Shown here: positions 1,811-41,454 of the stretch, piece after piece
How positions within the stretch are numbered: position 1 is the stretch's first letter
How the letters are laid out: each line of letters starts with the position of its first letter
From: Schmidtea nova
Taxonomy: Eukaryota
NCBI GenBank assembly: GCA_044892505.1
Contig: CM097882.1
Coordinates: 390,166,001-390,230,000 of the forward strand
Length of the DNA: 64,000 bases
Reading direction: 5' to 3'
The notes under the pieces: generated by a model
Database searches by the model: none
Seen by the model: the letters and a program-made list of their open reading frames with translations, nothing else
What the model was told of the DNA's origin: nothing
Translations under genes and position numbers: made by a program

Positions 1811-3939
1811 TATTCTTTTTTTGTTCTTGTTATGTACCTTTTTCATTTTCAATTTAAGTGGAATATTTTCTCTTCTAGTTGAATTTATTAACAATAAATT
1901 ACCAAAAATATATAAAATATTTTGCTTTTTAATATGAATTCATATATTGTTATATTTTGGTCCACGTGGGACTTGTGTGTTATTTATTTTTAGAGGCAGA
2001 TGAAGGTTGAAATTCAAAATGAATTTTATTTAGTTTGTTATACAGTTATTAAATTAGACACGTTAGATTTTAAAAACATATTCGAAGGAAAAAAAGTATA
2101 TTAAATTTAAAATAACATTTAACTGTATTTTCTTGTATGAAAATTTTAGACAAATTACTTTTACTCGGAATATTTATTTATTTTAACTTTAAAAAGAAGA
2201 AATTTAAAAAATCTTTTATAAGATTAAAGTCACATTGGAAGTGAGAATTGTTCAAAAGAATTCTTAGTAAAAGATATTTTCTAATTGCGGTTACGAATCG
2301 TGAAACAAAACAGTTAATTATTACAATTCCAATCTCATCGGATATTTGAGTAAATTTTAATTAAAACAGTTTTGAAGTCGAAAAACGTTCTTTACAATTG
2401 ATTTTATTGTAAAGTTTTTTTTCTCGAAATCAATATTTTTTTTCTCATTATTCAAGGAGAGTATCAGAATTATTTAAGAAAATGTGTGTTTAGCTTTTCA
2501 ACCAATCAGAGAAGTTCAATAGTATTTTCTAATAATCATAGAATTCCGGCAATTTATCCGTTCAGTTTTTACGGAAAATTGGCAAGTTTTATTGTTTTGA
2601 AAATTGAATCAATACTTAGTGTACATTTTATTATAAATTTTGGCCCAAATTATAAAATCAACCAAATTTATTAAATTAATTCATTTGTTTCGCATTTATA
2701 TCAAAACCGCATGTTTTATAACATGAAGTGTTTATTACTGATTTTCTACTTCACTTGTAAAAATAATAAAAATATTTCTTGAAAATATAAAATTGCAAAA
2801 ATATTTGTGACAGTCACCTTTTTAAAAATTGGCTAGTCAGTTTAGTCTAAAATCACAAATTCAGTGACTTATTTAAACTTTTCAACTAACTGGACTTTTA
2901 CAATAATTATAAAATAATAAGATGTTTACAAAGCAAATAGAGTACAATCACCTGCAATGTCCAAAATATCATCACTGATTTATTGGTCATATATACGCAT
3001 GTTTATTATTGTGGCAAGTTAAAAGCCATATTATATTAAAATACTCATCTTGCTACAGCTAACCATTCTCTTATTCACCATACACATTTATGCGTTGGAC
3101 GATAAACTTTAAAATATACAAAATTTCTCTATAAATAAATACAGAAATTTATACTTTAGTAACAGTGAAGTTAAAAAACTGAATCCAATGTCAGCAAAAG
3201 TGGTATACCTAGATTGAGAAAATTGTTTAATGAAATAAACACAAAATTAAATTAATTAAATGTTGTTTAATAACGCACTTAATGTGGGAAGGTTAATTCA
3301 ACCCTTTCCAATTATTCAGCTTGTCTCACAAAGTAAACTCATAAGTAGATATCCTTTCACGAATTTCGTAAAATAATCTTTTAATAGATGTATAGGATAA
3401 AATCACGTAAAAAGGTCAGACACTTAGGTATAATTACTATCTTAGCCCTGCTCATTTGAAAGTATTGTTTTAAAACATACAATGTAAATATATAATTATA
3501 TAAAATAATTAGTTATTTTGTCATATTCATATCAAACTTAAATATAATAAAGTTTTTCAGCAATGTACAATTTTAGAAAATTTTTTTAAATATTTTCCTT
3601 CTTCTACAATAGAATTACTTTATTGAAAGTTTCGCCATATACAATAAACTTGTTAAAGTGATTAAAAGCTTTTTTGCTAAAAACTTTAGTGCTTAACAAG
3701 TTCGCTGTTTATACAAGTGGTAAATCATAAAATATTGTATTTTTTCTGTATGTACATAATTTTGTGTTTCTCTTTCTATTTTTTAATATTATCTCCTCTT
3801 TGAAATATTAATAAATATATTTTTCTTTTTTAATTTTTCCATTATTACATCTCCACTTGACTTTTTTTAATTTGATACAACATTGATATCCATTGGAACA
3901 CAACGCTCTTATAGAGTCTTTACAAGCAATGATGTCAGA

Positions 3940-4290
3940 AATAAGTAGGTAAAATATAATTTTAAAAATTTTTCAAAGTTAAAATTAAGTAGGTCAATAA
4001 TAATAATTCTCGAAGTTATTCTAAGTCAGAATTAAGTAGGTCAATAATAATGACAAATTAAAAAATTTTTCTAAGTCAGAATAAGTAGGCCAATAATAAT
4101 TTTCGAATATTCATGTCAGAATTAAGTAGGTAATTAATAATTTTCGAAATTTTTCTAAGCCATAATTAAGTTGGTCACTTTAAGGATACTTTAAAGTCAA
4201 CAAAGTAGGTCAAATATAATTTTCAAAATTTTTCTGTCAGAAATAAGTAGGTAAAATATAAAAAACTTGAAAAATTTTTTTAAGTCAGAA
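3940..4290. repeat. Degenerate ~40-bp tandem array with core TAAGTAGGTCAA
   Basis: About 8 copies of (T/A)AAGTAGG. Its reverse complement recurs at 18760-18980. Confidence 0.85.
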
Positions 4291-4539
4291 TTAACTATTA
4301 AGTGACACAACACTTTGTGACTCACATGGCATTGTAAGTGCAAGTTTAATAAAGTTAATGAAATCAAGCTGCAAGATTAACAAAGGTAAGTAAGGAGTAA
4401 TTTGATTCTTATAATAATAATAATAATAATAATAATATTTTAAAACTTTGATTATAACATTTAAAATTAACACTGGTTTAAAAATCGAAACTATAATAAA
4501 AATTTGGACAAGAAAAAACTAAATTTGATAATATAAATA

Positions 4540-5021
4540 TTTATTGAATAACATTAATGTAAATTGTGCACTGTCAACTATCCAAATTGGAGTCATAAAA
4601 TCTTTTGTATCTACTTTATAACCCTGAATTATTATAATAATGAACCAGTGTTCTTGATCCTTGTATTCGATTGAGTGGAACGCATCATGAAAACGAGTTT
4701 TTCAGTTGTTGATGTAGATTGTTTCTTTGCAACATAAATTTTTATTGATTTTCAATAAAACTTTATTTAGTGCAACAACATGTTTTTAGATATATTTGCA
4801 GCTAAACTGCCATACAATGACTTTGTTAATTTGACCGGATACGATAATCTAAAAGGATTTCTTTCTACCAAGAAATAAATTTTATAATCATAATACATTT
4901 GAACTGGTTTGACTTCTGTCTTGATTTTCTTTTAATTTCTTCTTTACTTGTTTTCTTCCCTATTTATCGGGCTGTAAAAAATTTTATCGTAAGTAGGAAA
5001 ATTTGCTTTGTGTGATTGCAT
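4540..5021 (-). pseudogene. Polinton-associated uncharacterised ORF (KINK..CxETIYINN family), homolog of 38017-38427
   Basis: Minus-strand translation VALNKVLLKINKNLCCKETIYINN...HWFIIIIIQGYKVD aligns to SAINKVLIKINKKLSCSETIYINN...NWFIDISIQGYKVD. Contains stops. Confidence 0.75.
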
Positions 5022-5485
5022 TTTAATAATTATAACATTATCTTAAAATGGCTTTGTATTTATAGTCACGAGTTTATGTCTTTGTCCAATGAAAATGACG
5101 CATTCAAACTGTGTATGTTATGAATGTGTGTATGTCTTTGTTGCATGTGTATCTTTGTCCCATGCTATATATAATTGATGCATGTATGCGTATTTTATGT
5201 AGTTAAATGTTTTAGTTAATGTCTTTATTTAAAATGTTTATGTATTTATTTAATGTTTATTTGTCTTTATTTATTAGTTAAATTATTTAAAATTATTCTA
5301 ATAAAAAAAACCTCTATATTAATAAAAAACATATTACTATTTTACATAAAAAATTAGAAAACTGAACTTTAATAAAAACTTATAAACAAACTAAAATATG
5401 AATGATAATACATTTATTAAATGAAAACTAAAAATGGTAAAAATCTAAATAATAATAAAAATAAACATATTTACAATCTATTCCA

Positions 5486-5800
5486 TTATTGTTGCGGTGA
5501 TGATTGATTGCAATCTGTCATCTCACGATTGCATTCGTCGGAATCTGGAAGATCATCGGGAATCTTGCGATGACATTCTTCACAATCAGATGATTCTGGA
5601 GATTCATCGCATTGTGAAAATTTATCACATTGAACTGATTCGACACAATCTGAAGGAACCGGAAAATCAGTGGATCCATCGCAATCCGGAGTACAATTGG
5701 ACCATCGTTTAAGTTCTTTGTCTTTTTCTTCTTCTTCTTTTACTCGATTATTTTCAGTTCCCTCCGTAAAATCCATATACGGAACCTGTCAATTCTGTCA
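5486..5800 (-). pseudogene. C-terminal acidic/Cys-rich part of a Polinton-associated ORF, homolog of 31150-31765
   Basis: YMDFTE...EEKDKELKRWSNCTP...CNQSSPQ aligns with YLGVTE...EEDDQLKQWPNLTP...CDQSPQ. Confidence 0.6.
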
Positions 5801-5811
5801 ATTCAAACTGA

Positions 5812-6219
5812 AAATTAAAATAATGGATCTTATGGTGAATCTTCATCTACATTCAAACATTTTAATGTAACTTCATTATCTCTGTCAAAAAATACTGATT
5901 ATTGAGAATTTTTTAATCAAGATTTTGAAATTGATAATTTCAGGGATGCATATAGGCAAATTCTTGTCAGAAATTTAAGATATTTATATAAAACTTGAAT
6001 TTTGGTATAAGTCTCGAAGAAATTAAAACAAAATATCCATTCTTTACATTTGTTCTTGCTCCTGATTTCGATTTGAGCCAAAATCAAATCCCACGAAATG
6101 GGAATTTACGATAAGTTATCAAATCGGGTAAAGACATTGACGAAACGGTTCATGTAGTGATATATGGAGTCTTTGAAAATGAAGTACAAATTACTGCAAA
6201 TCGAACAGTACTAGTTTGA
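5812..6219 (+). pseudogene. Polinton major capsid protein (double jelly-roll), C-terminal fragment
   Basis: NGSYGESSSTFKHFNVTSLSL and FVLAPDFDLSQNQIPRNGNLR*VIKSGKDIDETVHVVIYGVFENEVQITANRTVLV* match the typical Polinton MCP C-terminus (FDLTPD..GNLRL..ETVNVIVYAEFDN.IEI..R.V). Confidence 0.8.
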
Positions 6220-6233
6220 ACTTTGTTGTATTA

Positions 6234-6560
6234 ATGAAACAAATCACTATAATAAAATTATAATCGAGTAAGTTTTTTAATTTGTAAAATAATTAATTAA
6301 ATTAGTTCTGTTTAGGTATACAGACTTGGTAAAAACTATTGGGAAATCAATTTATTTGAGTTTATCCGTATTTGAATATTAATCAGGCCATCATTGTAAA
6401 TACTCAGACATCTACTGTAGGCGGTGAACATTGGATTCGGAATTTGGTATATATTCAAATATATACCAAATTCCGAATTAATTATTGTTGCCGGGAAATT
6501 ATTAAAGAAAATTAATTTTAATTTTAAACGTATAATCAATTATTAAAACAAAATCAATTT
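6234..6560 (+). pseudogene. Polinton adenain-like (C5) cysteine protease, N-terminal part
   Basis: LLGNQFI*VYPYLNINQAIIVNTQTSTVGGEHWI matches F.GV.P / IVNT....GEHW. Starts 15 nt after the MCP stop. The catalytic Cys region is not recognisable. Confidence 0.75.
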
Positions 6561-6929
6561 AGAATAATTATGATAATAAAAATTAATTATTTTTTAATAA
6601 AATACTAATCGATTTTAAGTACTTGGTAATAAATTTATCACATTAAATACTTGTTATTAAAATTTTGATTAAAACAAAAAAATATAATCAAAAGATTTTA
6701 TAAATAAATTTTATTCACATATATTTGTTTCGATAATTTTCCAAATAAGTTTGACTACATCATTAGATTTTTTGAAACCTTAAATCACTATCTTAATTTG
6801 ATATATCAAATTTTCATCAGGTTTTTCAAATTACAATCTTTATTGCAATTCACATAGGTAAAATCTTCATTAAATTGAATTTCTTTGTTGATTGCTAATA
6901 TAAGTTCTGAAAAAAGCTTCATAATGTAT

Positions 6930-7880
6930 TTTCAGCGCTAGCTGTAACTATAGGCGGGAACCCTAAAGTAGTCGCTGGACCCATAATTAACTTATCATGG
7001 ATTCCCCTAAAGCTGTTCTAGGGCCTTCACTTATTTTGCCTTTGCCACAGATAGTAAAATAAATCCTTTATTGGGCATAGGGTCAGCATTTTTAGAATAA
7101 AATTGTTCCATGCCAATGTAAATTTAGTTTTATCTTGAGGTTCAATAATAAACTGTTTGTGTTGCATAACAGAATGGTAAATATCATAGCTTTCCCATCG
7201 TTCAATACATTTTTTCATCATTCCATAAGATGGAAAGACAACTAATAAACCACGCGGAATGAACTTGATTAAATTTAAATTATCATTTCCAAGAGAATTT
7301 GTATATGCTATTTTCTCACGAGTCAAATAGCTGGAATATAGAGTTTCACCATCAGCACCTTTAGTACAAACCGCGACCATCATCTGATCTGTATATCAAT
7401 ACGTAACTCTACTTCAAATTTAATATCAATGTCCAATTTCAGAGTTCCTGCTAGATATAGAGTTCCACTCGTTAGTATAATGCTGCGAAAATCACAATTA
7501 GCCAAAGATTTTATGGTGCGTTCTGGAGTCATACACAAAAAACTAGGAATTCGATTTTTATCCACAACAACTCTTTGATTCTTTTAAGAAACCCAATTGA
7601 ATTTATTATTGTTTTTGGTTGAAGTAGAAATTTTATTGTCTGAATTAATTGTAGAAGTTTTCTTCATATGATGCTGCCATGCGAGTTCTGCAAAGAGTAA
7701 GCAAAGAATTTTCCTGTAGCTTTTGGAGATTCCAAACTTTCTCGTTTACTGCCTTTTAATAAATCAGTAACCTTTTCCATGTATATTATCTGAGATGGAT
7801 AAGGTTGAAAGGGAAAATTTATTGATATGTCACGAATAGCAAATTTTAAAAAAACTCGAACCATACTCAACAAAGATTTA
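6930..7880 (-). pseudogene. RTEL1: RTEL1-like (XPD/DinG family) helicase pseudogene, intronless and internally deleted
   Basis: FPFQPYPSQIIYMEKV..LESPKATGK, then FLCMTP..RSIILTSGTL, KGADGETL, IPRGLLVVFPSY, and a frameshifted SVA.GKISEG. The central Fe-S/DEAH region is absent. Confidence 0.75.
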
Positions 7881-8029
7881 TTTTTTAAAAAAATTCCAAA
7901 AATTTTAAAATTCAAATAAGTCCAGTCAAACTACAGAATCTTAAATTTAATATTTAAATGTAAATTTTCTAAACTCAATGTATTTTGACTTATATACCAT
8001 TATTGTTACATTTTTATCAAGTAGCATAA

Positions 8030-17479: not shown

Positions 17480-18310
17480 TATTAAGCTTTGGCAGATAAA
17501 AACCCGAGTAATTATCTTGATAAGAATTACTTTAAACTCTTGAATAACAGCCTATATGGTAAATCTGGCGAAAATCTGAAAATACGGATGAATTTGAGAC
17601 TATGTAATTCATCTGAAAAGATGATTATATATTCTTCAAAGCCGTCTTTCAGAAAGTCTATCGAAATTGATGATGATCTAATTGCAGTACACCTGAATAA
17701 AAATTAAATATGTTTAGATAGACCTAGTTATATCGGTCAAACGGTACTAGATCTATACAAACTGCGGATGTATAGGGATCTCTTTGATTGTACTATAGGC
17801 ATTGTTGCTGGCGACTGACTCGTTCTTTCTTGAGGTCTAAAACTGTAAACTTACCACACTTTTACCGGCAATGATTTCAGATTGTCTTTTAGAAATATCT
17901 AACTATGATCACGACCATCTCTTATATTTACGACATCTTGACTCTGTTATAGGTAAATTTAGGGATGACAGTACGCCCGAAATATTATAGCCTTCTTGGC
18001 GATGTTGAATCCAATAAAGTCAAGGGGTTTAAATTTATAGGCACTAACATCAAGCATCAATCTTATATTGATTGCTATCTTAATGATCGAATATTTACTG
18101 TCACATAAACTCGTATAGGGAATAAAAATCATCAACTTTTCACAATTAAAAATAATAAAATCGCACTTAGCAATAACGACGATAAGCGCCAATGGGTTGA
18201 GAGGAATGGAAGTCTTGCATTTGGGCATAATTTGGGATTCAATGCCTGAACTGATGGCGATAATATTCCGCCCGAAGAATTGCCGGATCCTTAACCAATG
18301 CAGATGGAAC
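17480..18310 (+). pseudogene. Protein-primed PolB C-terminal fragment (divergent Polinton subfamily)
   Basis: KNYFKLLNNSLYGKSGEN (motif B), LDRPSYIGQTVLDL, a frameshifted GDTDS motif and VIGKFRD. Contains stops and frameshifts. Confidence 0.9.
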
Positions 18311-18669
18311 AAGATTCATGGCGACAATATAGTTTTCAAAAATAAAAGTTTACTTTTTTAAAAGATTTTGTTATTTTTAAAGTTTTTTTATTGTTTGTTT
18401 TATATAAGAACCTGTGTAAATATTAAATGTTTTTATATAGGGACCAGTAACATTTTTTCATACCATAATTGTTTGGTATTAATTGATTATTTTATAAGTT
18501 TTCTAAGATAGAAATATTATAAGANNNNNNNNNNNNNNNNNNNNNNNNNNNNNNNNNNNNNNNNNNNNNNNNNNNNNNNNNNNNNNNNNNNNNNNNNNNN
18601 NNNNNNNNNNNNNNNNNNNNNNNNNNNNNNNNNNNNNNNNNNNNNNNNNNNNNNNNNNNNNNNNNNCTT

Positions 18670-18980
18670 ATCTTTGTTAATATTGTAGCTTGATTGCATT
18701 GCCTTTACTAAACTTGCACTTACAATGCCATGTGAGTCACAAAGTGTTGTGACACTTAATAGTTAATTCTGACTTAGAAAAAATGTTCAAGTTTTTTATA
18801 TTTGAGCTACTTAATTCTAACATAGGAAAATTTTGAAAATTATATTTGACCTACTTAATTTTGACGTAGAAAAATTTGTAAATTTATAATTATTATTGAC
18901 TTACTTAATTCTAATTTAGAAAAACTTTAAAAATTATATTTGACCTACTTAATTTTGAAATAGAAAAATTTTAAAAATTA
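18670..18980. repeat. Inverted homolog of 3940-4400, including a TGACCTACTTAATT array
   Basis: AAACTTGCACTTACAATGCCATGTGAGTCACAAAGTGTTGTG matches the reverse complement of 4300-4350; five or more TGAC(C/T)TACTTAATT units follow. Confidence 0.85.
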
Positions 18981-19088
18981 TTGTTGTATACAATTTAGTT
19001 GTCGATAGTTACACAGTCAGCCAATCGAATTCGAGTATTTATCAAAAGAAAATACTATAAATACCACATCTTTGAAAATATAAATCTA

Positions 19089-19550
19089 ATGTTATGCAAT
19101 ATAAATTATAAAGGTAAATGTTAAGTTCCTGGCATGATATTCCCGGGCGGAAAACCTCAACAAGTTGTAGATAGAATCAAAAAGTATCCCATCATATTTT
19201 TCAGATCAAGGAACTGTCGAATAATGGGGTGTAAACAACCGTTTATAATTGGAGATTTACCATACAAAATAAAAGATATTCAATTACAATTGAGAACTGA
19301 TTTAAATGAATTGACAAGAAATAACAATTGTATTTATGAACCAGAAATATTCTCCGGTTTGAGCGTGCTGAAATTTTATCCATTATGTGTTAATGTATTT
19401 ACCAGTGGTAAAATAGTTATACTTGGAATAAAAACTTTAGAATATCATGCTCTAGTTCATGAAATTGTAAATTATATAAAATCAATGATTATTGATCCTA
19501 TATTGATGACATATAAGATATTTCTAGAGTTTTTGCTTGATATTGAATAA
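19089..19550 (+). CDS. Compact TBP-like protein (Polinton-borne), mildly degenerate copy A
   Basis: YEPEIFSGL..F.PLCVNVFTSGKIVILGIK resembles TBP repeat 2; NINYKG..PIIFFRS..RIMGCK resembles repeat 1. In-frame TAA at 19122-19124, then open for 138 aa. CTATAAATA lies ~30 nt upstream. Confidence 0.75.
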
Positions 19551-21286
19551 TTGTTTTATAAATTAAAAATTTCATTACAATTTGTTTGTTTTAATTAGAA
19601 ATTATATTAGTTTTTCCGGGGACTTTTTGTTATTTTAACTTTAAAATTCATGTTTAATTATTACTTTTATTGTAACTTTTAATTAAAATAATAATAAAAA
19701 ATATAAGTATTTTCTATTAAATTGCTTTCTTTTTGAAAACTTATATTTGTAATTCATATTTAATTACTTCTGTTATTGTTAAAGTAATGATATTACTATG
19801 TAATTAATTTTTTATTAATTTGATTTTTCATTTAATTGAATTCTTATTAAAATTTCTACTTTAAATTCTTATTTAAATATATCTTTATTAATTTTTAATA
19901 CGAATTATATTACTCTCTCTATAAAATTTTAATTATTTTTAATATTTTATTCAAAGTAGTAAGCTTTATCCTAAGATTTGATAAATTAATTTAAAACTTT
20001 TAAAATTAATTGAGAACATTGTTGTAAATTTTGTATTCAACTAACAATTTAATTTAAAATTATCCTGAATGTATTCGTAATTGATTTATTGTTTTCCTCT
20101 AAATTTATACTTATATTTATACTTATTATTTTAAGAAATAAATTATCTATTTTCTTATGAGAATTTATATCAATTTAACTTTGATTGATGTTCACCATCT
20201 AGTACATGAAAAGTAGTAGTATCCAGTAAATAATATTTCTTATGTGATGATTTTAGAGCATCGAAGTTTGTGTCAGTGTCTAGTAATACTCATGTATTGA
20301 AAGAGTATACTTGAATTTATCAAAAATATAATTAACTTCTTAGCTTGTTAGTTATTTGATTAATAGTTGATTATTTAATTATCTGGTATTGATTGATTGA
20401 TGGGTAGTTATTTTGTAACTGGTTATAAATTTGAAAAATTATCATTTTTATATTCAATGTAGTTATCTTTTAATTAAAATTTATTACATTTGTTTCCTTA
20501 TTAAATGAATTTTATTTGTTTCTTTAAATTATTTTGTACAATGTCAATAACTATATTTGATCTTTCATTGTAAACTTACTCATTTTATTATTTTTTTTAC
20601 TTACAAATAATTGTATAAGTGCAAACCAATTTTGTTTGATTTTGACCATTGAGTATTGTTTTTTTAGAAAAAGAAGGTTTATACGCTTATTATTTGTAAT
20701 TTAATTAAAAATATATTTAATTATTTAAATATTAACTAAACAATTTAATTTATTTAAAAATGTACAAAGACACTTATTAGTAAGGGATTAGTTGATTGAT
20801 AGGTAGTATATATTGAGACCAATGTTATTTTGATGACTAATTGAAAATTAGTGATTGTGTAAAACTATTTGTTAGTTTTTAATGGTACGTTTATGTGTGT
20901 AGAGTGAATCGATAGTTGATTGGTAGCAGATTGATGTGAAGAGCTTGTTATTTAATGTGTATAAGTAGTTGGTAGCGAGTACTTGATTTATTTGTTAACT
21001 GATTTAGAGCTATTAGTTTAACAGTTCAATCCCAAAGTATTACCGTCATTACGCCTACAGAAATTTATTCCCACGTGTATCAATATATTTTCAAACAGCA
21101 AAAATGCTATGCTTGTAATTTAAACTTTGGATTATAAAAATTATGTGGAAAATATAATAAATGAAATAAATACAATAATTTATTAAATAAATTTTGTTTG
21201 TATTAATTTTTAGTCCTTGATTTTAAAAATTTGAAAATTTCTAAAAGAAATAGTATTTTTTACTTTTATATTAATTTATTCTTTAG

Positions 21287-21618
21287 TTTATTTGTTCGAA
21301 GTAGTTCTCAAGAGTATCCAAGAATTATACTCAAAGATTCAAAGTAATCTCGATTATTGTGCCCCCGAGTTATTGGTACACAAAATATACCATTACACAA
21401 AGTTCAATATCGAGCAGTTGCTCGAAATGCATTATGATATGATTCTTTGGGCTGACATAAGTGTGTCAAAAATTGCATTGTATGTAAAGATTTAATGTGA
21501 GATTCATGTACCAATGGATGTGCTGTTTGTCATGACTTTAAACGACAACAATTACTACATATTTTGGTTACCCAAATGCGAAAGGCATACTATGATGACC
21601 TCCACAATACAAAGTAAT
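21287..21618 (+). pseudogene. Uncharacterised pseudogene exon (LDYCAPELLVHKIYHYT plus Cys-rich tail), paralog of 1605-1810
   Basis: Same CTTTAG|TTTATTT acceptor context. After a frameshift it continues KCVKNCIVCKDLM.DSCTNGCAVCHDF. Confidence 0.6.
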
Positions 21619-21729
21619 TGTTGAAGATTTCCATGGATAATGATTTATTTTTAAAATACTTTGTTGTTTTTATAATTTTATTTTTATGAATTCTTTATTG
21701 TTGGTCGTTAAATTGAGCATTTTGGTATA

Positions 21730-22100
21730 TATATTATTGAATTCTGACCATTTATAAATTTTTGGAAATTCCCCGAGTCGATCCTTTTAACGTGTAAAAT
21801 TTGATTGGGTGAAACAAAGTTTTCATGTTTTTACTTTTTGACCTTTTCTTTTGTCCACGTTAAATTCTCAGTAGATTGGAAAAAAAATTATTGAATTCTG
21901 TCCATTTTCAAAATTTTTCTAAATTACCTGAGTCGACCTTTTCTACATATAAAATTTGGTCGGATGAGACAAAATTTTCATGTTTTTACTTTTTGACCCT
22001 TTTTTGTTCGCCATTCAATTCTCAGTAGATTGGTATAAAAAATTATTTAATTCCGAGCATTTTTGGAAATTCCCGGAGTCAATCTTTTCACATGTAAATT
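21730..22100. repeat. ~152-bp tandem repeat, about 2.4 units
   Basis: ATTGAATTCTG.CCATTT and TTTTCATGTTTTTACTTTTTGACC and TTCTCAGTAGATTGG recur with that period. Confidence 0.85.
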
Positions 22101-22299
22101 GATCGCGAACATCAAATTATGAATTTTGTTGAAAATATTAATTAATTTTAAAGATTTTGAAAAGATTTATAAAAAAAATTATTATTTTTATAATTTTTAC
22201 TAAAATTTTGAAAAGTAAAATAAAAGCAAATAGAAATTATTAAATTTCAGTATCAGGTCATTGGTTACGTAAGAATTAAGCTATTATGTTTTTAAGTGC

Positions 22300-22550
22300 T
22301 ATATACTAGCTACGAAAGAGTTAAGTATCATAAAGTATTTCATAATTCCGGTAGTGTTATGGGACAGTTACGTAATATCTACGTGAATTGGGAAGTTTTG
22401 TGTAATAAATACGTAATGATCACATAATAATTACATAACATATATGTTATTATGTAATTCTTAAAAGCTACGGCTATCTTTTCAATTATTACGCAATATA
22501 TACAGTTTAGAGATAAATGGCTTGTACTAGACCACTTACTTCCCCCTACT
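22300..22550 (-). mobile_element. Putative Polinton terminus (reads AGTAGGGGGAAGTAAGTGGTCTAGTAC inward)
   Basis: About 70 nt are homologous to 29275-29342; 5'-AGTAG end. Confidence 0.6.
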
Positions 22551-27766: not shown

Positions 27767-29250
27767 TTACAAATCTGAATCTGAACCTTTTATCATCCAA
27801 GTTCGTTAAGGCTACTTTATGGTTTTTATTAGTAAATAATTGATGATGTTTGGTAACTATTCGTTATTTAGCAAAAGAAACCATCGAATTATTATAATAA
27901 CAATTCAGGTATGACTGATGTTTTAGGTCAGTACACTTCAATGTTATACACTGAGACATAATGCTCTCTTTTTCACTTAAAAGACAATAACACTTTGGTC
28001 TAAGAAAAACCCACTCCTTGTACTTGAGTCCTTTATTATCGTCTTTGAATTTTCCAATGACGGAATTTCGGCTTCTCTAGTACAAGGGATGATTTGGATC
28101 ATAATTCGGGGTATCTAAAAGTCTATCCATAACCAAAGCCGACCAAAGAAGATCCAAATTACTATTATTAATCTCCAAGAAAAAAGAGTCTGTATCACCA
28201 GCTACTATATTAATCTCGCATTTGAATTCATTACGATATTGTTGTAATTATTCATACTGGAGTTGATACATCCTAAGTTTAGAGAAATCCGTACAGTTTG
28301 ACCAATGTAGCTGGGTCTATCTAAACACACAGAGTCCTTATTAAGAAAAACAGAAATTATGTCATCATCAATCTTATAAGTTTTTCAAAAGGTAGGTTTT
28401 GAGGAATATGTAATCAGTTAAGACGCTGAATTACAAAGTCGTAAATTAAGTCTTTTCTTAAGATTCTCAGCAGTTTTACCGTTAAGACTATTATTTAAAA
28501 GTTTGTAATAGTTCTTATCTTAAGTCGTAGAAGAAGCTGCCCTTAGTTTAGTGTCTGTGTCAATGTAATTTTTAAAAATGTATTTCTGTTTGTACTGAAC
28601 AGCATGATAAACTCTAATTATTTTGACACCTAAAGAAACAAAAAGCACGAGAAGCCTCCAATGAACAACATAGTCGAACTTGGGATAATACGTAAACATC
28701 AGCTTGTCAACTTTTGAACCCGGAGCGCACAATTCTTCTGCTGAAACGGGAAAATCATTTAATTTATCGTGAATTTCTGAAGGGATTTCAAGATCCACTT
28801 CAAAAGTCACGCCATAAGTCAAAATAACCAAATCAGCATGCCTTAATTTAATTAATTCATAATAATAGATAATCCAAGAGAACCATAAGGTAATCTTTGA
28901 CTTAAAGCCCACCTGTATAAATTATTTATGTCAATATATGAAAGTTCAGTCGTTTCGGAGGAAACTACAAATGTCAAACCAATATGGATCTCTCCTTCGA
29001 AAAAATTTTAAATCTCCATATCCTGAAGAAATTCGATTGGTTCATCAAAGGTATTGGGCGTAGAAGCCCACCGTATACCTGGAATTCCCAAGAAATTAAA
29101 AGGCTCAAGTTGATTGTAAGTTATAGACTTTGCCCTAAACTTTTGAAAGAAATCGGCAAGAAGAAAAACATTCAGTTTCAGGTAGACCATCATATAGTCA
29201 CAAAAAGCCCATCCGTATAAATTATTAATGTCATTGTAAAGCAATTAAGT
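27767..29250 (-). pseudogene. Protein-primed PolB, C-terminal half (inverted copy of ~40080-41454)
   Basis: CDYMMVYLKL.VFLLADFF, HIDINNLY.WAL (motif A), KLLQTF.NNSL (motif B) and IVAGDTDSFF (motif C). Roughly 85% identical to the plus-strand copy, estimated by eye. Confidence 0.9.
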
Positions 29251-31765: not shown

Positions 31766-31974
31766 ATTTCGTTATATCAGACATTTTTGATTGTGAATAT
31801 AAATTATTGCAAAATGACCATTGTATATATATATACGATAGAAACACAAGGCATGTACAAACTATTACACACTGAACCAATCAGATTCGAGTATGCATAA
31901 AATTTTATTGTCAAAATACACATTGAACCAATCAGAATCGTGCATTAATATTGCAGATTTATTGCAATCATGAG

Positions 31975-32040
31975 TCACATGTTAATATGAAATTTAAAAA
32001 CTCTATATTCAATAATTGAATTTATATCGGTAATAATATT
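31975..32040 (-). pseudogene. C-terminal end of TBP-like copy B, separated by the Gypsy insertion
   Basis: Removing the Gypsy and one ATATT gives in-frame LNIVDNIITDINSIIEYRVFKFHINM*. Confidence 0.75.
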
Positions 32041-32325
32041 TGTGATATGCAGTACATTGAATAAAAGTTAAAATTAAAATTTTGTGAAATTTTTATAAAA
32101 TCTTTATTGTCATTTAAGAAATTTCGATTTTGAAAAATTAAATGAAATTTATTGAATTATTATTTTGATCAGTGGATTAAAAATGTTTGTTTAAATAATA
32201 ATTGAAAGTGAAGAGAATTTTAAAAATAAATAAACAATTGATTTTAGTGAAATAAAAATTAGAATAAAAACTTATGTCTTTTGATTTACCAAATGATTCG
32301 ACCGACAACTTCGTTGCGGCTAACA
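32041..32325 (+). repeat. 5' LTR (285 bp)
   Basis: TGTGATATG...GGCTAACA; near-identical to 36627-36912. Confidence 0.97.
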
Positions 32326-33422
32326 TGGCCACCACGTCTTCGGAATTTTTTCTTGGACAATTGATACCGACAAAGTTCAGAAAAGGAGATGATGTCGACA
32401 AATTTATTGGAGAATGCGAAACGTTTTTTCAGTTTGCAAATTTTACAGGTGTCAAACTGGAAATAATAGTAATTTCCCTGTTAGATGATGATCTCAGGAA
32501 GAAATATAAAAGTATCGACCCAAAGATCAAATGCTTCAAAGAGAGAATGAGAACGGCATTTAAAACGGAAACAACAGTATTACAAGATATCAAAGCAGCC
32601 TTGGAATACAAGCAAACAAACGAAGAACCCGAAAGGTACTTCGAGATGATAGACAAGAAAGTAGATAAAATCTTCGAACGAGAATGAACAAAAGAAGATC
32701 TGAAGGAAAAACTCTTAATAGAATGCTCAAATGTGAGAGAGTTAAAAATGGAAGTATGTCTAAATCAGATCAAAGGAATAGACCAAATAAAAAAGAAAAT
32801 CATAAGGTTACACGAGGCTTATAAGATGACGGAGGAAATTATGGCCATAGAAAGAAGCAGACCAGAATCAGGAAATGTAAGAAGTTACAGAGATGCAGCC
32901 AGAACGAAGAACAACTATACACAGAGACCATATATGCAAACAAGACAATACAATAAGCTGGAAGGAAGAAGAGATTACGAGAATCAAAAAAGTAAAAGAG
33001 AGATGGAATGTTGGACTTGTCACCAAGTAGATCATTTAAGCCGAGACTGCCCAAAGAAATCGATTGCATGCTTCGGATGCGGAAAAGAAGGACATATCAG
33101 AAGAGAATGTCTAAATATAAAATGTAGGAGATGCAATAGAAATGGCCATAAAGAAGCTGAGTGTTATACAAATTTAAACCGAAAAGAAACAAGAAGATTA
33201 AATTCGAATGAACAGTATCAAAGAAATAGAGGATATCAAGGAAAAGGTGGATATTATAATTATGTAGAACAAGGAAGAATGAAAAGAGAATCAAGGGGAA
33301 CCAGAGATAGTTATGTAGCAAATATCGAGGAGAAGTTTTCAGAAAATGGAGAGTATGAAGATCGAAGATACCCAAACGAGAATGCTCTGACAGAAGAGGA
33401 GATAGTCGGAGCGATATATTAG
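32325..33422 (+). CDS. gag: Gag with three CCHC zinc knuckles; one premature TGA at 32685-32687
   Basis: CWTCHQVDHLSRDC, CFGCGKEGHIRREC and CRRCNRNGHKEAEC. The two ORF-track pieces are in the same frame. Confidence 0.9.
32326..32336 (+). promoter_or_regulatory. Primer-binding site TGGCCACCACG (tRNA-Arg-like, inferred)
   Basis: Immediately follows the LTR. As recalled, it is 10/11 identical to TGGCGACCACG, the complement of a eukaryotic tRNA-Arg 3' end. Confidence 0.6.
33371..33412 (+). promoter_or_regulatory. -1 ribosomal frameshift signal
   Basis: C CCA AAC heptamer in the gag frame, a 6-nt spacer, then an 8-bp stem GCTCTGAC/GTCGGAGC. pol is in the -1 frame and open from here. Confidence 0.75.
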
Positions 33423-36400
33423 AAAATTGGAGAAATTCCCAAATTATGAATTATTATAGTATAAGTAGTATATTACCTATTATAGAGAATACATTAGAGA
33501 GCGAGCTAACAAACGAGGAAATGATATGCACAGCAAATAAAGTAAACATATTTTTGAAAAAGAATTGGAGAATCAGTAAAGGTAAAGAGAATGCGATTGA
33601 TAGAAGTGTAGATATTATGGCTTTAGTTGAACAGAATCAGAAAATAATAAGATATGACAGAATGCAGGGCCGACCAAGTGTAACAATCGAGATCAATGGA
33701 GAAGTCATGGAGTGTTTATTGGATACCGGTGCAAGAATTAATGTTATGAGCTGGAAAAACTTTCAGAGATTACGAGAGATTGAGTTGATAAGGACAACAA
33801 TAACACTTCGGTGTGCAAACGACGGAAAATTAGAAATAAAAGGTAGCGCAGAAATGAAAGTCAATTTGAATGGTATGGAGAGAAAAATACAGTTCACAAT
33901 AGTTGAACAACTAACACCAGAGGTTATCGGAGGTATTGAGATGCAACAAAAATTTGGCATTGATTTCCAGTTTAGTAATACTCAGGATGAAACAGAGACG
34001 ATCAACCACGTTGGGAACATAGAAGCCAAATTTGGGAGAGTTATCACAGAAGGAGAACGGTTTCAGAAGGCCAGAGATACGATTAAGATAAAAGATCCGA
34101 ATATTATAGAATTAATAAGGAAGAATCATAATGTGTTTATGGCAGATAAATGGGATATAGGATGTACAAAGTTATTGAAACATAGAATTGAGACACAAGG
34201 AGGACCGATAAATATTAAACCGTGGAGGCAACCGATCAATTTAGAAGGAAAGATTGATGAGGTAATTAATAATCTGTGGGATAATAACATTATCAAGAAG
34301 TTTAATTCTCCTTGGAACACGCCGTTAATTTGCGTGTGGAAAAAAGAGAAACAGGATGTCAGGCTGTGTCTAGATTTTAGACTGTTAAATTTAGTAACGG
34401 TGAGACAGGCTTTCCCAATGCCAAATATATCAGAATTATTAGATAAACTGTGGGGAGCTCAGTACTTTACTTCGATTGACCTGGTTAATGCATACTATCA
34501 GGTTGAGCTGGATGAAGAATCAAAAGAAAAGACAGCTTTTTCAACGAAGGTAGGACAATTTTGTTTTAATAGAATGCCCTTCGGAATAGCGGCGGCACCA
34601 GGAACGTTTCAGGAGCTCATGCTGAAAGTGCTGGAAAACAGAGCTGGTACAGCAGTTTACTTGAACGACATCTTAATATTCACAAATTCAATCAATGAAC
34701 ACTATCAAGTTCTGGAGGACGTATTAAAGAGAATAGAGAAAGCTGGTTTTAGAATTAGACCGGAGAAATGCCACATTTTAAAAAAGGAGAAAAAGTTTCT
34801 GGGGCACATCATAAATGAAAAGGGTATTCAGACCGACCCAGCTAAAACAGAGTCAATACGATCGTTCCAAAGACCAAAATGTATCAAGAGTTTGAGAAGC
34901 TTCCTAGGAATATGTAATTATTACAGGAGATTTATTGAAGGATACTCAGAAAAGTCGAGAGCACTAGAAGAACTGTGTGGGAAGAATAAAGAAAAGAAAC
35001 TAGTATGGACAGATAATTGCGAAAGAGCGTTTAACGAGATGAAAGAGGCGTTGACGTCAACACAAGTGTTAGGTTTCCCCGATGTCAATAAAGAGTTTAT
35101 TTTAGATACAGGCGCCAGTTTTGGGTCAATCGGCGCTGTATTATCACAGTTAGACGACGAGGGAAATGAAAGGGTTATAGCATATAGCTCGCACGCAATG
35201 AACAACCACGAAAAGGGATATTGCATAACGAGAAAGGAGTTATTAGCAGTTTACTATTTTTGCCAGCACTTTAATCATTATCTGAACGGGAGAAAACTTA
35301 CATTACGCACAGATCATAAAGCGATCACATTCATGTTGAAAACAAAAAAGCCGATCTCAGCACAATTCCAGACATGGATCAACCTTCTCAGTAGTTTCGA
35401 TATAAAAATAGAATACAGAGAAGGGACAAAACACGCGAACGCAGATATGTTATCAAGTAAGACATGTGGAACGTGCACACAATGTTTATTAATTCACGAA
35501 GACCCAAAAGAGGGTAAGCTAAAAACCAGAAGAATTAATGCGATAGATAACGATGAAAAGATCGAATGGCAAGAAAATAGTACAGAGATAAGACAAATAA
35601 AAGAAGAGATTATCCGAGATGCGTCATGGAAGTTTATTCTGGAAAACGGTATAGTGAAAACAAAGGAAAGGAAAATATGGATCCCTGAAGATAAACGTCA
35701 GGAAGCGATAAAGACAATCCATAGTTTACTTTCTCACGCAGGAGTCAAAAAAACGACATTATATATGAGAAACAACTACGATATGAAAAATATGAAAGAA
35801 ATAGCAAAAGAAATTATTATAAAATGTGAGCCGTGTCAAAAAGTAAAGGTAGTGACATCAACTACAAAAGAGGAAACCATAAAATTATCAGCAGGTGAGC
35901 CATTTGAGAAGATATATATAGATATATGTGGGCCTTTGCAAGAAACGTATAGGAAAAAGAAATATATTGTTGCCATAATTGATCAATTTAGTAGATAAAT
36001 AGTACTAAGACCAGTAGCAAGACAAGATAAAGAGACAATAAAAGAAACTATCATGAGGGATTGGATATTAAGATTTGGAGCACCAATGGAGATTCATGTA
36101 GATTGTGGGAAAGTATTCGAATCGAGAGCAATATCAGAAACTTTGCTTTTCAAGTCCATATCATCATAATACGAACGGTATCATAGAGAGACAATTCAGA
36201 ACAATAAGGGATTACATAAATACGTCACTGAAAGAGAGGAAAAAAACAGATTGGGCAGAAATATTGCCAGAAATAGAATTCACACTGAATGCAACAATAC
36301 AGAAGTCGATTGGTAAGAGTCCAGCAGAGGTAATATTTGGACGTAAAATATTTAGAAAACGATGTCACACAAGACCTGGACCACAAATCAAAAAATCAGA

Positions 36401-36620
36401 GCTAAAAGTAGGAACACCTGAACAGATACCAACAAAGAGGTCTTTCAATCAAGGAGAAAAAGTGCTAATTAAGGTAGAGTCAAGAACGAAAGAAAGAGAT
36501 AGATATGAAGGGCCGTACGAGATTATTCAGAAAATACATGACAGACGATATCTGTTGAGAGACAATTCGGGAAAGACAATACAGAGAAATGTTGAAAAGA
36601 TGAAGAAATATTTTAAAGAA
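33372..36620 (+). CDS. pol: Pol polyprotein (PR, RT, RNase H, integrase), disrupted in the integrase
   Basis: LLDTGA, YLND (a YxDD variant), LRTDH, H..H..CEPC, IDICGP, SPYHHNTNGIIER and YEGPY. Stop at 35996 and a frameshift near 36140. Confidence 0.95.
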
Positions 36621-36626
36621 GGGGGA

Positions 36627-36912
36627 TGTGATATGCAGTACATTGATTAAAATTTAAAATTTGTGAAATTTGTGAAATTTTTTTAAATTTTTATTGTCAT
36701 TTAAGAAATTTCGATTTTGAAAAATTAAATAAAATTTATTGAATTATTATTTTGATCAGTGGATTAAAAATGTTTGTTTAAATAATAATTGAAAGTGAAG
36801 AGAATTTTAAAAATAAATAAAAAATTGATTTTAGTGAAATAAAAATTAGAATAAAAACTTATGTCTTTTGATTTACCGAATGATTCGACCGACAACTTCG
36901 TTGCGGCTAACA
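36627..36912 (+). repeat. 3' LTR (286 bp), preceded by PPT AAAGAAGGGGGA
   Basis: Direct repeat of 32041-32325. Confidence 0.97.
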
Positions 36913-37302
36913 ATATTATCAACTATATTTAAATAGTCCCTAGTTTTTAAACCCAATATAACTACTTTTATCGCTTGCAAATATATTAACACACGGGGTT
37001 ATATTTCATGTATCTCAAAGCTGGAAATATTTTTGGCTAGTAAACACATTCTATTAATTTAGCCAAATCATTTAAATTACAATTAAATCTCAAGTCTGCC
37101 GTTACAGTAATTGATTGTTAAATTATAAATCTTTACTTTTTCATCGCTAATAAATTCCTTGCATCCCATAATTCTAAATCTCCCGGTTTTAAAATATATT
37201 ATAGGATATTTACCACTTCTATCAATAATTTGCTGTGATTTCCCATTTTGAAAATTCATGAGATACATCAGTCTTACCTTTATAATTTATGTTGCTAATC
37301 AT
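36913..37302 (-). pseudogene. TBP-like gene copy B (main part), divergent from the ATPase
   Basis: MISNINYKG..KYPIIYFKTGRFRIMGCK..LQSITVTADLRFNCNLNDLAK..VY*PKIFPALRYMKYNPVC.NIFAS.KVVILGLK, with small frameshifts. Aligns end to end with 19089-19550. Confidence 0.8.
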
Positions 37303-37394: not shown

Positions 37395-38012
37395 ATGGAA
37401 TTAAGAAATGATGCATTATTTCAAATTGTTGGACCAAGCTGGAGTGGAAAATCTTTATTTGTTTGTAAATTATTACAATCGGAGTTATTCAAAGTTTAAT
37501 AAAATTTATTGGCATAGGGGTGCGGATAATAACCATGGAATGACTCAAGATCAATTTCGTAAAATTAAAAATGACAATCATAAAAGGTTTCGATAAAAAT
37601 TGGTCATCTAAATTACGAAATGGTGATGTGATTATTATTGATGACTTGTATCAAGAAGCAAATAAAGAAAAAGATTTTATTAATTAATTTACCAAAATCG
37701 CTAGACACAAGGTTGTTACAGTTATTTTTATTACTCAGAATTTATTTCATCAGGGTGGCATTCATAGAACCCGGAATTTAAATGTTCAATATATTGTTTT
37801 TTTTTAAATCCTAGCGATGCAACAGTTATTGACTTTCTTGCAAGACAAGCATACCCTTCTAATTGGATTTTATTGATTGATGCGTTTCAAGATGCTACAA
37901 AGCTGCTCATGGATATCTTTTTCTTGATTTCACACAACAATGTAATGTTGACTAAGGAGTTAGGACAGATAGTTTCAACAAGAAAGGAGCCATGGTTTAT
38001 AAACAAAGTTAA
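37395..38012 (+). pseudogene. Polinton packaging ATPase (A32/FtsK-like)
   Basis: IVGPSWSGKS (Walker A), VIIIDDL (Walker B), IFITQNLF, RNLNVQYIVF.NPSD and GYLFLDF..VRTD. Contains frameshifts. Confidence 0.92.
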
Positions 38013-38739: not shown

Positions 38740-41454
38740 TTCTAGAATGCACATTTCTGTCTACTCTGTAAACATTCTGATGACCTATGTTTCATTTACA
38801 GCATTTAGCTATTTTGAAATATAGTGAGGTAACTGATTATTAATAGATATAGGATTAGTAATTATTATCTTTCTGATATTGATTTTGACCCTTCAGACTA
38901 AAACCCCTGGACTTGCTATTAATGTTCTTTCTTATGATGAGGATGCTTTGCTTAAAACCTGAAGATTTTAAACATTCTTGTGTTGACATTATACACAGGT
39001 CGAATGTTGTTGGTGGTACTCCTTTTAACTTAATTTTGTTAGAAAGTGGTAATGTATATCATTTTATTGCTGTCACCGATCTTGATAGGCATTTGACTTA
39101 TCTCAATCACTATTTTTCAGATACTCTCGTAAAAGCTATATAGTGTCATCGATGCTTTAGTAGATTTCGAAAACCTGAAACATTTAATTGTCATCAACAG
39201 TTGTGTGCTAAACATCAATTGAGCACAAATCTTTAAACTTTACCAAGAAATAAAAATTTATAATTTTCTAATTGGTCTAAGACAATAACTCCACCTTTTT
39301 TAGTTGACGCCAATTTTGAGGCAATCTTACCTACGGATGATAAGTATTTTCAAAGACATGTCCTAATATCTGCCGGTCTTTTACTTGTAAATAATATTAC
39401 TGGAGAAAAGCTTTACAAAGGTTTCCTAGGGCTTGGTTGCGTTTCTAAGTTTTTTCTTAAATTAGTGATATTTCTTAAACTATAGTTTATCCCTTTCATA
39501 AAAATAATTAAAAGAAATCACTTTTTATGACTTAAGCCAATCAACAAGCATTTTCAGTAGCGAAAATTTGCTATCTTTGTAAGAAATCTTTAGTCTAACA
39601 GATTAGGGATCATGATCACTACACTGGAGAATTTTTGGGAGCTGCTTGTAATTCTTGTAATCAATCCCGTCAGTTATACAAGTTTTTACCCGCTATCTTT
39701 CATAATTTAAAGGGCTATGACTTGAACTGTATTCTTGGTTTGGCTGATTTTTAATTTTGGAAAATTTCTTGCATTCCAACAACTAGCGAAAAGGTCTTCG
39801 GTGATTTAACTATTAAATTTATCGACTCTTGTCAGTTTTTTAATTCAAGCTTAAATGATGCCGTTAAAACTTTTACTTGTTTACCTTTGACTTTTTACTT
39901 TTTACCTTTGCCTTTGATTAGATCAGAATTCCACGGGACTATTGTTGATTGTAAGGGTATTTGTCCTTATAATTTTACTACATATTTAGAAATTCTTAAC
40001 AACATTTATGAGTTGCCATCAATCTGGGAAGGTGTTACTCAAGCCGAATATGACAAGGTATTTGTAATTTGGAGGGAATCACAGTGTCAAACTCTGTGTG
40101 ACTATATGATGGTCTACCTTAAACTGGATGTTTTTCTTCTTGCTGATTTCTTTCAACAGTTTATGGCAAAATCTATAGCTTACAATCGACTTGAGCCTTT
40201 GAATTTTTCGGATATTCCAGGTATGTCGTGGGCTTCTGCACTTATTACCTTGAATGAACCAATCGAGTTTCTCCAAGATATGGAGATTTATATTTTCCTC
40301 AAAGGAAGGATCCATGGGGCTTGAAATTTGTCTACAAGCATCATGTAAATTAAATTGCTTAACATTGATATTATTATTTTTTATATGGATGAGCTTTAAG
40401 AAAAGAATTACCATATGGCGAGTTTTCTTGGATTATTGCCAAAGATGAACTAAATAATGTAATTAATTTAATGGATACCGATTTGGCTATTTCAAGTTCA
40501 TGATAAATTAAATGATTTACCCATGGCAGCAGAAATAAATACGTGTACTCCGGGTTCAAAAGTTGAGACACTGAGAGTTTAACTACCTATGTTGTTAATT
40601 GGAGGCTTCTATAGCTTTTTGTTTCTTTTGGCGTTAAAATAACATGAGTTCATCGGGCTGTTAAGTACAAAGAGAAACCCATTTTTTTAAAATACATAGA
40701 TACAAAACTCAACTTAGGGCAGCTTCTTCTACAGCTTTAGATAAGAACTATTACAAATTCTTGAATAATAGTCTTCACTGTAAAACTGTTGAGAATCTTA
40801 AGAAAAGAAGTAATTTACGACTTTGTAATTCAGCATATTCACTGATTATATAAACTTTAAAACCTACCTTCTACCTAATTTCTGTTTTGCTTAATAAGGA
40901 CTCTGTGTGTTTAGATAGACCCAGCTACTTTAGTCAAACTGTACAATAATATCGTAATGAATTCAACTGCGAGAATAATATAGTAGCTGGTGATACAGAC
41001 TCTTTTCTTGGAGGTTAAAAATTGTAATTTGGATCTTCTTTGGTCGGATTTGGTTAGGGATAGGCTTTTATATACCTCGAATTATGATCCAAATCATACC
41101 TTGTACTAGAGAAGCCTAGATTCCGTCATTGGAAAATTATGTCACAGGGTATAACATTGATGGGTACTGACCTAAAACATCAGTCGTACCTGGATTGTTA
41201 TTATAATAATTCGATGGTTTCTGTTGCTCAATAACGAATAGTTAGCAAGCATCATCAATTATTTACTAATAAAACCATAAAGTAGCCGTAACGAACTTGG
41301 ATGAAAAAAGGTTTTGGTTGGGGAAAATGAAAGTCTTGCATATGGACATTATAAGAGATGTGACTCGTTTATAGACCAATCAAAAGATCAGGTTAGCGTT
41401 CTATATATAGATACATCGCTCAATTCAAATTATATATCAGATTCAGATTTGTAA
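38740..41454 (+). pseudogene. Protein-primed family B DNA polymerase, near full length and degenerate
   Basis: LAINVLSY, RDHDHYTGEFLGAACNSCN, IFHNLKGYD, IKFIDSCQF, KGICPY, YLKLDVFLLADFF, KFLNNSL and VAGDTDSF. Confidence 0.93.

Follow-up and report, generated by a model that had tools for sequence, protein, structure and literature searches.

A decayed TBP-like gene in Schmidtea nova marks a non-autonomous Polinton family and points to a candidate late-gene factor in its autonomous relatives

Why does a Polinton carry a gene for a TBP-like protein, and is the copy of that gene before us still a working one? The question arises from a 64,000-nt stretch of the Schmidtea nova genome (GCA_044892505.1, CM097882.1, positions 390,166,001 to 390,230,000; hereafter the window), which holds two TBP-like copies, A and B. 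The original prediction took copy A for an intact, diverged gene in a Polinton gene arrangement of its own and read its retention in two subfamilies as the mark of an old, selected cargo gene. Several Polintons have inserted into the window, one nested among the others, and the features on which the answer depends are collected in Table 1.

Copy A is a pseudogene. A 138-aa TBP-like frame from ATG to stop is indeed present at 19134-19550, with a Pfam TBP match of 33.5 bits against a cut-off of 22.9. The span 19089-19550 (154 codons), which had been taken for an intact frame, is broken: the ATG at 19089 opens eleven codons, codon 12 is TAA (19122-19124), the frame is then open as far as 19550, and 27 nt present in the sister copies are missing after 19288. 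A genome search for relatives of copy A gave at least 150 matches; its open sisters encode 162 aa, are 80-84% identical and have as first codon the counterpart of 19089. The 138-aa frame has lost its first central strand to the stop and most of its second to the deletion, and the predicted model of this frame lacks both long central strands (pTM 0.44, against 0.86 for an open relative). Because of these losses we treat the '138 aa' frame as a product of decay; copy A itself is of interest only as a marker for a non-autonomous family. The CTATAAATA at 19055 lies 34 nt 5' of the ATG at 19089 and 79 nt from the ATG at 19134, so the TATA box described about 30 nt upstream suits the first ATG and not that of the 138-aa frame. 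CCAAT recurs in 37 and TATAAATA in 27 of the 38 A loci that have the promoter stretch, and we infer a promoter role for CCAAT and CTATAAATA at the A-type gene. The end-to-end alignment with copy B holds loosely, copy B being frameshifted and split by an LTR retrotransposon and the best tblastn segment 34% identical; the absence of an ATPase beside copy A is confirmed.

The 3' remainder of copy B lies at 31971-32040, beyond the inserted Ty3/Gypsy LTR retrotransposon (32041-36912; LTRs 95% identical, a gag zinc knuckle and an 879-aa pol frame). Elsewhere in the window, a broken XPD/FANCJ/RTEL1-type helicase gene (7027-7930, minus strand) directly follows the A-type left-arm piece; its pieces match Pfam Helicase_C_2 and the PDB structures of XPD and FANCJ (E ~1e-7 to 1e-6) and are possibly a processed or captured fragment of a host gene. 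A 313-aa Tc1/mariner-type transposase frame occupies 53318-54259 (minus strand), and further decayed Polinton pieces, among them a TIR gene, a putative capsid gene and two pPolB remnants, lie at 3934-6437, 27786-29200 and 38773-41370.

Table 1. Features of the window that bear on the TBP-like gene (positions are those of the window)
Feature	Position	Strand	Remarks
Piece of left arm, A-type element	6449..6912	+	88.5% to L116 element 613-1090
Broken pPolB C-terminus of another Polinton	17516..18237	+	not native neighbour of copy A
TGACCTACTT array, likely subterminal repeat of a different Polinton	18667..18986		inverted 80% match to 4091-4390
Right part of A-family Polinton	18985..22550	+	5'-truncated at 18985; ends ...CCCCTACT at 22550; 83-88% colinear with full-length L116 element
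Putative promoter of A-type gene	19021..19063	+	CCAAT at 19021, CTATAAATA at 19055
Copy A, decayed TBP-like gene	19089..19550	+	early stop, 27-nt deletion, changes at positions nearly invariant elsewhere
Fragment C, second, older TBP-like remnant (C-terminal ~45 codons)	21025..21150	+	within A element
Remnant of orf90, small gene after TBP-like gene in autonomous elements	21301..21432	+	tblastn
Right TIR of A element	21722..22550		155-bp array, then terminus
Copy B, frameshifted TBP-like gene of autonomous-type subfamily	36908..37302	-	83% DNA match to open B-family copy
Broken packaging ATPase	37395..38009	+	head-to-head with copy B

The neighbourhood upstream of copy A is not native to it. 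The pPolB C-terminal remnant (17516-18237) and a 44-bp array containing TGACCTACTT (18796-18981) do stand before copy A in the window, but they do not form with it the Polinton gene order that had been proposed. Compared with its sister loci, the window begins to resemble them sharply at 18985, and among 40 scored matches the window alone spans this junction. The array or the pPolB end occurs within 600 nt upstream in none of the 55 A loci with a promoter region; 52 of the 55 share another upstream sequence. A run of N interrupts the upstream segment at 18525-18666. Since both flanks of this run match adjacent parts of one repeat (4091-4505), around an AAT microsatellite, the pPolB end and the TGACCTACTT array probably belong to one element, distinct from that of copy A. 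The inverted match of the array, 4091-4390, adjoins a gene that the young autonomous family described below keeps within its TIR. These similarities suggest that a different Polinton contributed its right arm, made up of the pPolB end and the array, and that the 5'-truncated A element is joined to it.

The original prediction was right to place copy A in a family apart, with its own layout, and this family is a TIR-bounded, non-autonomous Polinton with a full length of about 6.7 kb (5.6-6.7 kb). Sister A copies have the same 3' end, ...CCCTACT, as the window at 22550 and its inverse as their 5' end; the window copy is without its left end. In 3 of 40 flanks the gene lies between both ends (elements L095, L107 and L116; 5.6 kb once and 6.7 kb twice). 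The ends are of the form AG..CT, with TIRs, and exact 6-bp target duplications flank L052, L065 and L095; four of six positions agree in L116, and none was found in L107. Polymerase, integrase, ATPase and capsid genes are absent from the three full-length elements, which retain only a 5' stub of pPolB. The order in L116 is TIR, a broken homologue of an unnamed S3 gene, pPolB 5' stub, arrays, TBP-like gene, second TBP-like remnant, orf90 remnant and TIR, and the second remnant (fragment C) is in the same place in 19 of 20 loci chosen by that region. Other Polinton genes turn up in 12 of 40 A flanks, where their positions vary and no ATPase adjoins the TBP-like gene. Followed for 1.5 kb in 30 loci, the A-type pPolB stub never leads into the polymerase body; nine show the start of the TBP-like gene instead. 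The TIR, measured on L116, is about 80% like that of the autonomous subfamily S2a over ~400 nt, which makes an S2a-type subfamily a plausible helper of the A family. An autonomous parent with an A-type TBP-like gene was not found among the genome loci sampled.

Other features of the A element deserve mention. A near-perfect 42-bp palindrome (6435-6476) lies in the left arm of A-type elements, by the TIR, and several copies break off exactly there; a Helitron reading based on it was dropped once the TIRs and 6-bp duplications were found. The L116 element (G000:C1:196510444-196520443) also holds, at 870-1430, a broken and probably intron-bearing frame, ORF-X, with a homologue upstream of pPolB in subfamily S3. 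A Pfam search with ORF-X and fragment C gave no match.

The TBP-like gene is at home in autonomous elements. A young family (G000:C1:386452945-386468386) is 15.4 kb long, with copies 96-98% identical, ~950-bp TIRs and a 6-bp duplication, and carries an open 156-aa TBP-like gene head-to-head with an A32-type ATPase; six copies encode one protein sequence. The same head-to-head layout is common to subfamilies S2, S3 and B and was present in all 20 sampled loci that had been picked by their ATPase. The gene is thus a fixed part of this Polinton lineage, which the term 'cargo gene' understates. In the young family the integrase (rve, 34.8 bits) and the ATPase (Pox_A32, 28.4 bits) score above their Pfam cut-offs. 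Its pPolB is a 1368-aa frame whose homologue in the window matches DNA_pol_B_2 below the cut-off (E 2.9e-4), and its 406-aa and 340-aa frames have no Pfam match. The labels MCP, mCP and protease are those we presume for its frames from size, order and motifs. The element also carries a 147-aa gene (orf147), in two copies within the TIRs, behind a CCAAT and TATA promoter, and its integrase and protease genes seem to be split by introns. Contigs of four runs that cover the element were set aside as evidence of expression; they run unspliced through the interrupted stretch of the integrase, as DNA would. The subfamilies look mosaic, with a young-type gene block beside a pPolB only 74% identical (L085-L086, L079-L082), and the TBP-like genes are more diverged at silent sites than the adjacent ATPases (Y against S2a, dS 1.28 and 0.12). 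This pattern suggests mosaic subfamilies formed by the swapping of modules.

The gene also has relatives well beyond this genome. A search outside it returned 112 representatives at E <=1e-10, many of ~150 aa and matched over most of their length, and on metagenomic contigs such relatives stand beside ATPase, integrase or putative capsid genes in varying order. A scan of viral contigs with the TBP-like alignment gave five loci at 30-33% identity; the one examined is a large virus with a canonical TBP. In the tree, one database protein groups with A, Y, S2, S3 and B (98/91); the A-family copies have a clade of their own (100/99), and canonical TBPs fall in a separate clade (100/99). The host TBP is a canonical, intron-bearing gene about 1.1 Mb from the window (L170, G000:C1:389097133). 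Recent capture from it was rejected, given the separate clades and a best segment only 34% identical to the Polinton protein.

Divergence between subfamilies supports an old gene under selection. By the Nei-Gojobori method, dN/dS of the TBP-like gene between subfamilies is 0.12-0.39 for the computable pairs, one pair being saturated, and all bootstrap intervals of pN/pS lie below 1. Open A-family against open B-family copies, the comparison proposed with the original prediction, gives 0.31-0.39, and the other computable subfamily pairs 0.12-0.34; the three B-family copies differ from each other at 0.15-0.18, and the ATPase control gives 0.06-0.09. Together with dozens of relatives of ~150 aa in other organisms, these values bear out the prediction of an old, selected gene. 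Within the A family dN/dS is about 1. We compared 57 copies (59 with at least 100 aligned codons, less two near-duplicates; two copies identical to L015 had been excluded beforehand) and found no significant purifying signal, the synonymous share being as expected whatever the frequency class (P 0.28-0.46). Of 414 private changes 93 are synonymous, as neutrality predicts (expected share 0.22), and lineage-linked changes comprise 3 synonymous and 5 non-synonymous. An apparent excess among shared variants fell to P 0.08 after type matching and was gone with more copies. Retention of the gene in the A family therefore argues only weakly for selection, the family being non-autonomous and its 57 copies without a significant signal. 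The copies differ from the commonest codon of each column by a median of 5.8%. A sense codon is the commonest in all 162 columns of the alignment, and 7 of the 57 copies align over at least 160 codons without a stop; hence the source gene was open when the family spread.

The open protein is predicted to adopt the two-repeat saddle fold of TBP. Pfam TBP scores are 59.2 bits for the open 156-aa copy and 56.6 for an open A copy (cut-off 22.9). The AF2 model of the open relative (pLDDT 97, pTM 0.86) matches human TBP with Z 12.7 over 145 of 156 residues (rmsd 2.5), and yeast TBP likewise; the next unrelated fold has Z 6.6. The ESM Atlas places the protein among TBP clusters (0.96), with recognition below the Atlas threshold. 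When its profile is aligned to canonical TBPs (probability 99.7), repeat 1 proves to be short by ~11 residues, helix 1 among them. The shortened first half-repeat noted for copy A is therefore a trait of the family. The roles given to the residues that follow, DNA-facing and other, are those of their counterparts in TBP. Over 50 sequences, three intercalating Phe are kept (F38 in 49, F97 and F113 in all 50), as are the first central Asn (N4) and, judged by sequence, the acidic residues of the stirrup (E93 in 47, E95 in 48). The first Phe has become Pro in 48 of 50, in an alignment uncertain here by one residue, and the second central Asn is Ser or Thr in all (S/T68). Of the canonical four Phe and two central Asn, then, three and one remain. 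New residues are fixed at positions of the DNA face (R44 in 48 of 50, M46 and N111 in 50 of 50; also Asn6). The role of the four Phe in TBP is also described in PMC12209930.

A promoter-like motif, ATAAACA, accompanies the gene in autonomous elements. In the young 15.4-kb element all nine occurrences of ATAAACAA are on the gene strand. A third-order Markov model expects 1.2 (0 of 500 simulations reach 8), for a motif that was picked by eye on this same element. Eight of the nine sites lie within 110 nt of a gene start (ATPase, orf181, orf78/integrase, putative minor and major capsid, orf132 and orf139), and S2 and S3 have sites at matching offsets. Twenty further autonomous loci, relatives of each other, have 158 sites on one strand and 2 on the other, at a density of 0.99 per kb, compared with 0.09-0.12 in A flanks. 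Among distant metagenomic contigs with the gene, strand counts are 9/1, 7/2, 9/0 and 5/0; seven of the nine contigs examined have 3-9 sites on one strand, and two have 0-1. The motif is absent from the TBP-like gene, pPolB, orf90 and orf147 of the young element, and none lies within 140 nt of the assumed start of the putative protease gene. An ordinary TATA box takes its place at the A-type gene and in two metagenomic relatives, and the gene strand of L116 has no site. Distances from motif to ATG vary from -7 to -100, and four sites fall within the coding sequence of the preceding gene. No gene precedes the ATPase site on the same strand, so the motif is not a terminator. Four scans of viral contigs with ATPase and putative capsid queries, single and aligned, confirmed no related Polinton without the TBP-like gene; the link between motif and gene is therefore a co-occurrence in one lineage. 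Repeat 1 of TBP contacts the 3' half of the TATA box. It is in this half, on the side of repeat 1, that the motif departs from TATAAAA, a fit that is suggestive only.

We think it rather likely that a mini-TBP made early recognises (T)ATAAACA in front of the packaging and virion genes and draws host TFIIB and Pol II to them. Host machinery would transcribe the motif-free TBP-like gene first; the protein would then bind (T)ATAAACA through its remodelled DNA face, and its conserved second-repeat stirrup would bring in host TFIIB and Pol II. The block of packaging and virion genes (ATPase, integrase and putative capsid genes) would thereby be switched on. The A family likely arose from such an autonomous element by deletion and inversion and kept the TBP-like gene behind its CCAAT and TATA promoter. 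An autonomous relative whose termini are similar likely mobilised it in trans, and it has decayed neutrally since insertion. That the two-step scheme, with a minimal re-specified TBP and its own (T)ATAAACA late promoter, also explains the gutted family, which would have kept the gene behind a strong host-type promoter because the factor boosted its helpers in trans, is a doubtful extension.

Among the rival explanations, it seems unlikely that recognition of the motif falls to a host factor (host TBP with a tolerance for TATAAAC, or a Forkhead or Sox protein), or that the motif is an initiator, with the TBP-like protein doing something else. ATAAACA and AACAAT do resemble host Forkhead and Sox sites. 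A T precedes ATAAACA in only 35 of 64 contexts, the host has its canonical TBP gene, and we take TATAAAC to be the box variant that forms a G-C Hoogsteen pair. The strict strand bias (158 against 2) and fixed place of the motif, however, suit a directional core element, and DNA-face residues that are new and invariant in the family point to a specificity of its own. Binding of a box variant by cellular TBP through a G-C Hoogsteen pair is described in PMC8643651.

A decoy role, in which binding to host TFIIB or to other partners of TBP lowers host transcription and the protein has no promoter of its own to serve, would account for a protein that retains the TFIIB stirrup and has lost helix 1, the first stirrup and one intercalating Phe; PMC12209930 describes a Giardia TBP that lacks three Phe and binds DNA unconventionally. 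We consider a decoy quite improbable, since three Phe and the concave face are constrained beyond its needs and the element has a dedicated TATA-like motif. Least credible, to the point of being very improbable, is that copy A is the working cargo gene of a second autonomous Polinton, placed after pPolB. The adjacency of pPolB end, array and gene in the window and the separate clade of the A copies speak for it; the stop and deletion in copy A, the junction seen in the window alone among 40 scored matches, full-length A elements of 5.6-6.7 kb without core genes, and 0 of 30 pPolB-stub loci reaching the polymerase body within 1.5 kb speak against it. The early-made mini-TBP thus remains our preferred reading. 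A conserved mini-TBP with one sharply placed motif offers a direct and cheap test of a herpesvirus-like late-gene switch in a 15-kb element, and, if the reading is true, a natural TBP with changed specificity, useful for the rules of TBP-DNA recognition.

Viral TBP-like proteins are already known, but for TBP-like genes of related viruses the literature that we found offers nothing beyond one figure label: in the text of Starrett et al. (2021; PMC8502044) TBP occurs a single time, where the legend of Fig. 5 labels it for Polinton-like viruses from non-animal datasets. A search for the term in 10.64898/2026.10.13.758929 and PMC12220804 gave no relevant TBP passage. Our search of the literature found no mini-TBP with its own late motif in animal Polintons, no TBP-bearing non-autonomous Polinton family, no late-promoter motif of Polintons and no account of the timing of capsid and packaging genes in animal Polintons; an earlier annotation might exist in Repbase reports, subscription papers or supplements on bioRxiv.

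The autonomous elements resemble Polintons, Mavericks and adintoviruses in their size of 15-16 kb, TIRs, AGT...ACT ends and 6-bp target duplication, and in pPolB, an rve integrase with a chromodomain and an A32-type ATPase. Their TBP-like protein shares with cellular TBP (PF00352; human 5fur_A, yeast 7o4i_O, archaeal 1mp9) the saddle fold, the YEPE[IL]FP stirrup of the second repeat, three intercalating Phe and the first central Asn; unlike it, the Polinton protein has 156-162 aa, a repeat 1 shorter by ~11 residues, Pro for the first Phe, Ser for the second central Asn and invariant Arg, Met and Asn on the DNA face. TBP-like proteins of giant viruses (NCLDV) match its fold (best E 2.4e-8) at ~16% identity and are mostly larger. 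Most giant viruses encode their own RNA polymerase, and no RNA polymerase gene was seen in the young Polinton element. The likeness to the TBP mimics of herpesviruses (KSHV ORF24, EBV BcRF1 and HCMV UL87) would lie in the pairing of a viral TBP-like protein with a modified TATA box on late genes; according to PMC6541308, KSHV ORF24 drives late genes from the modified box TATT. The fold similarity to these mimics is weak (BcRF1, E 4e-3), and the Polinton protein is not a member of their group. The herpesvirus mimics make direct contact with Pol II and work as part of a complex of six proteins, whereas the Polinton protein is, in the predicted model, the saddle alone, with its TFIIB stirrup intact.
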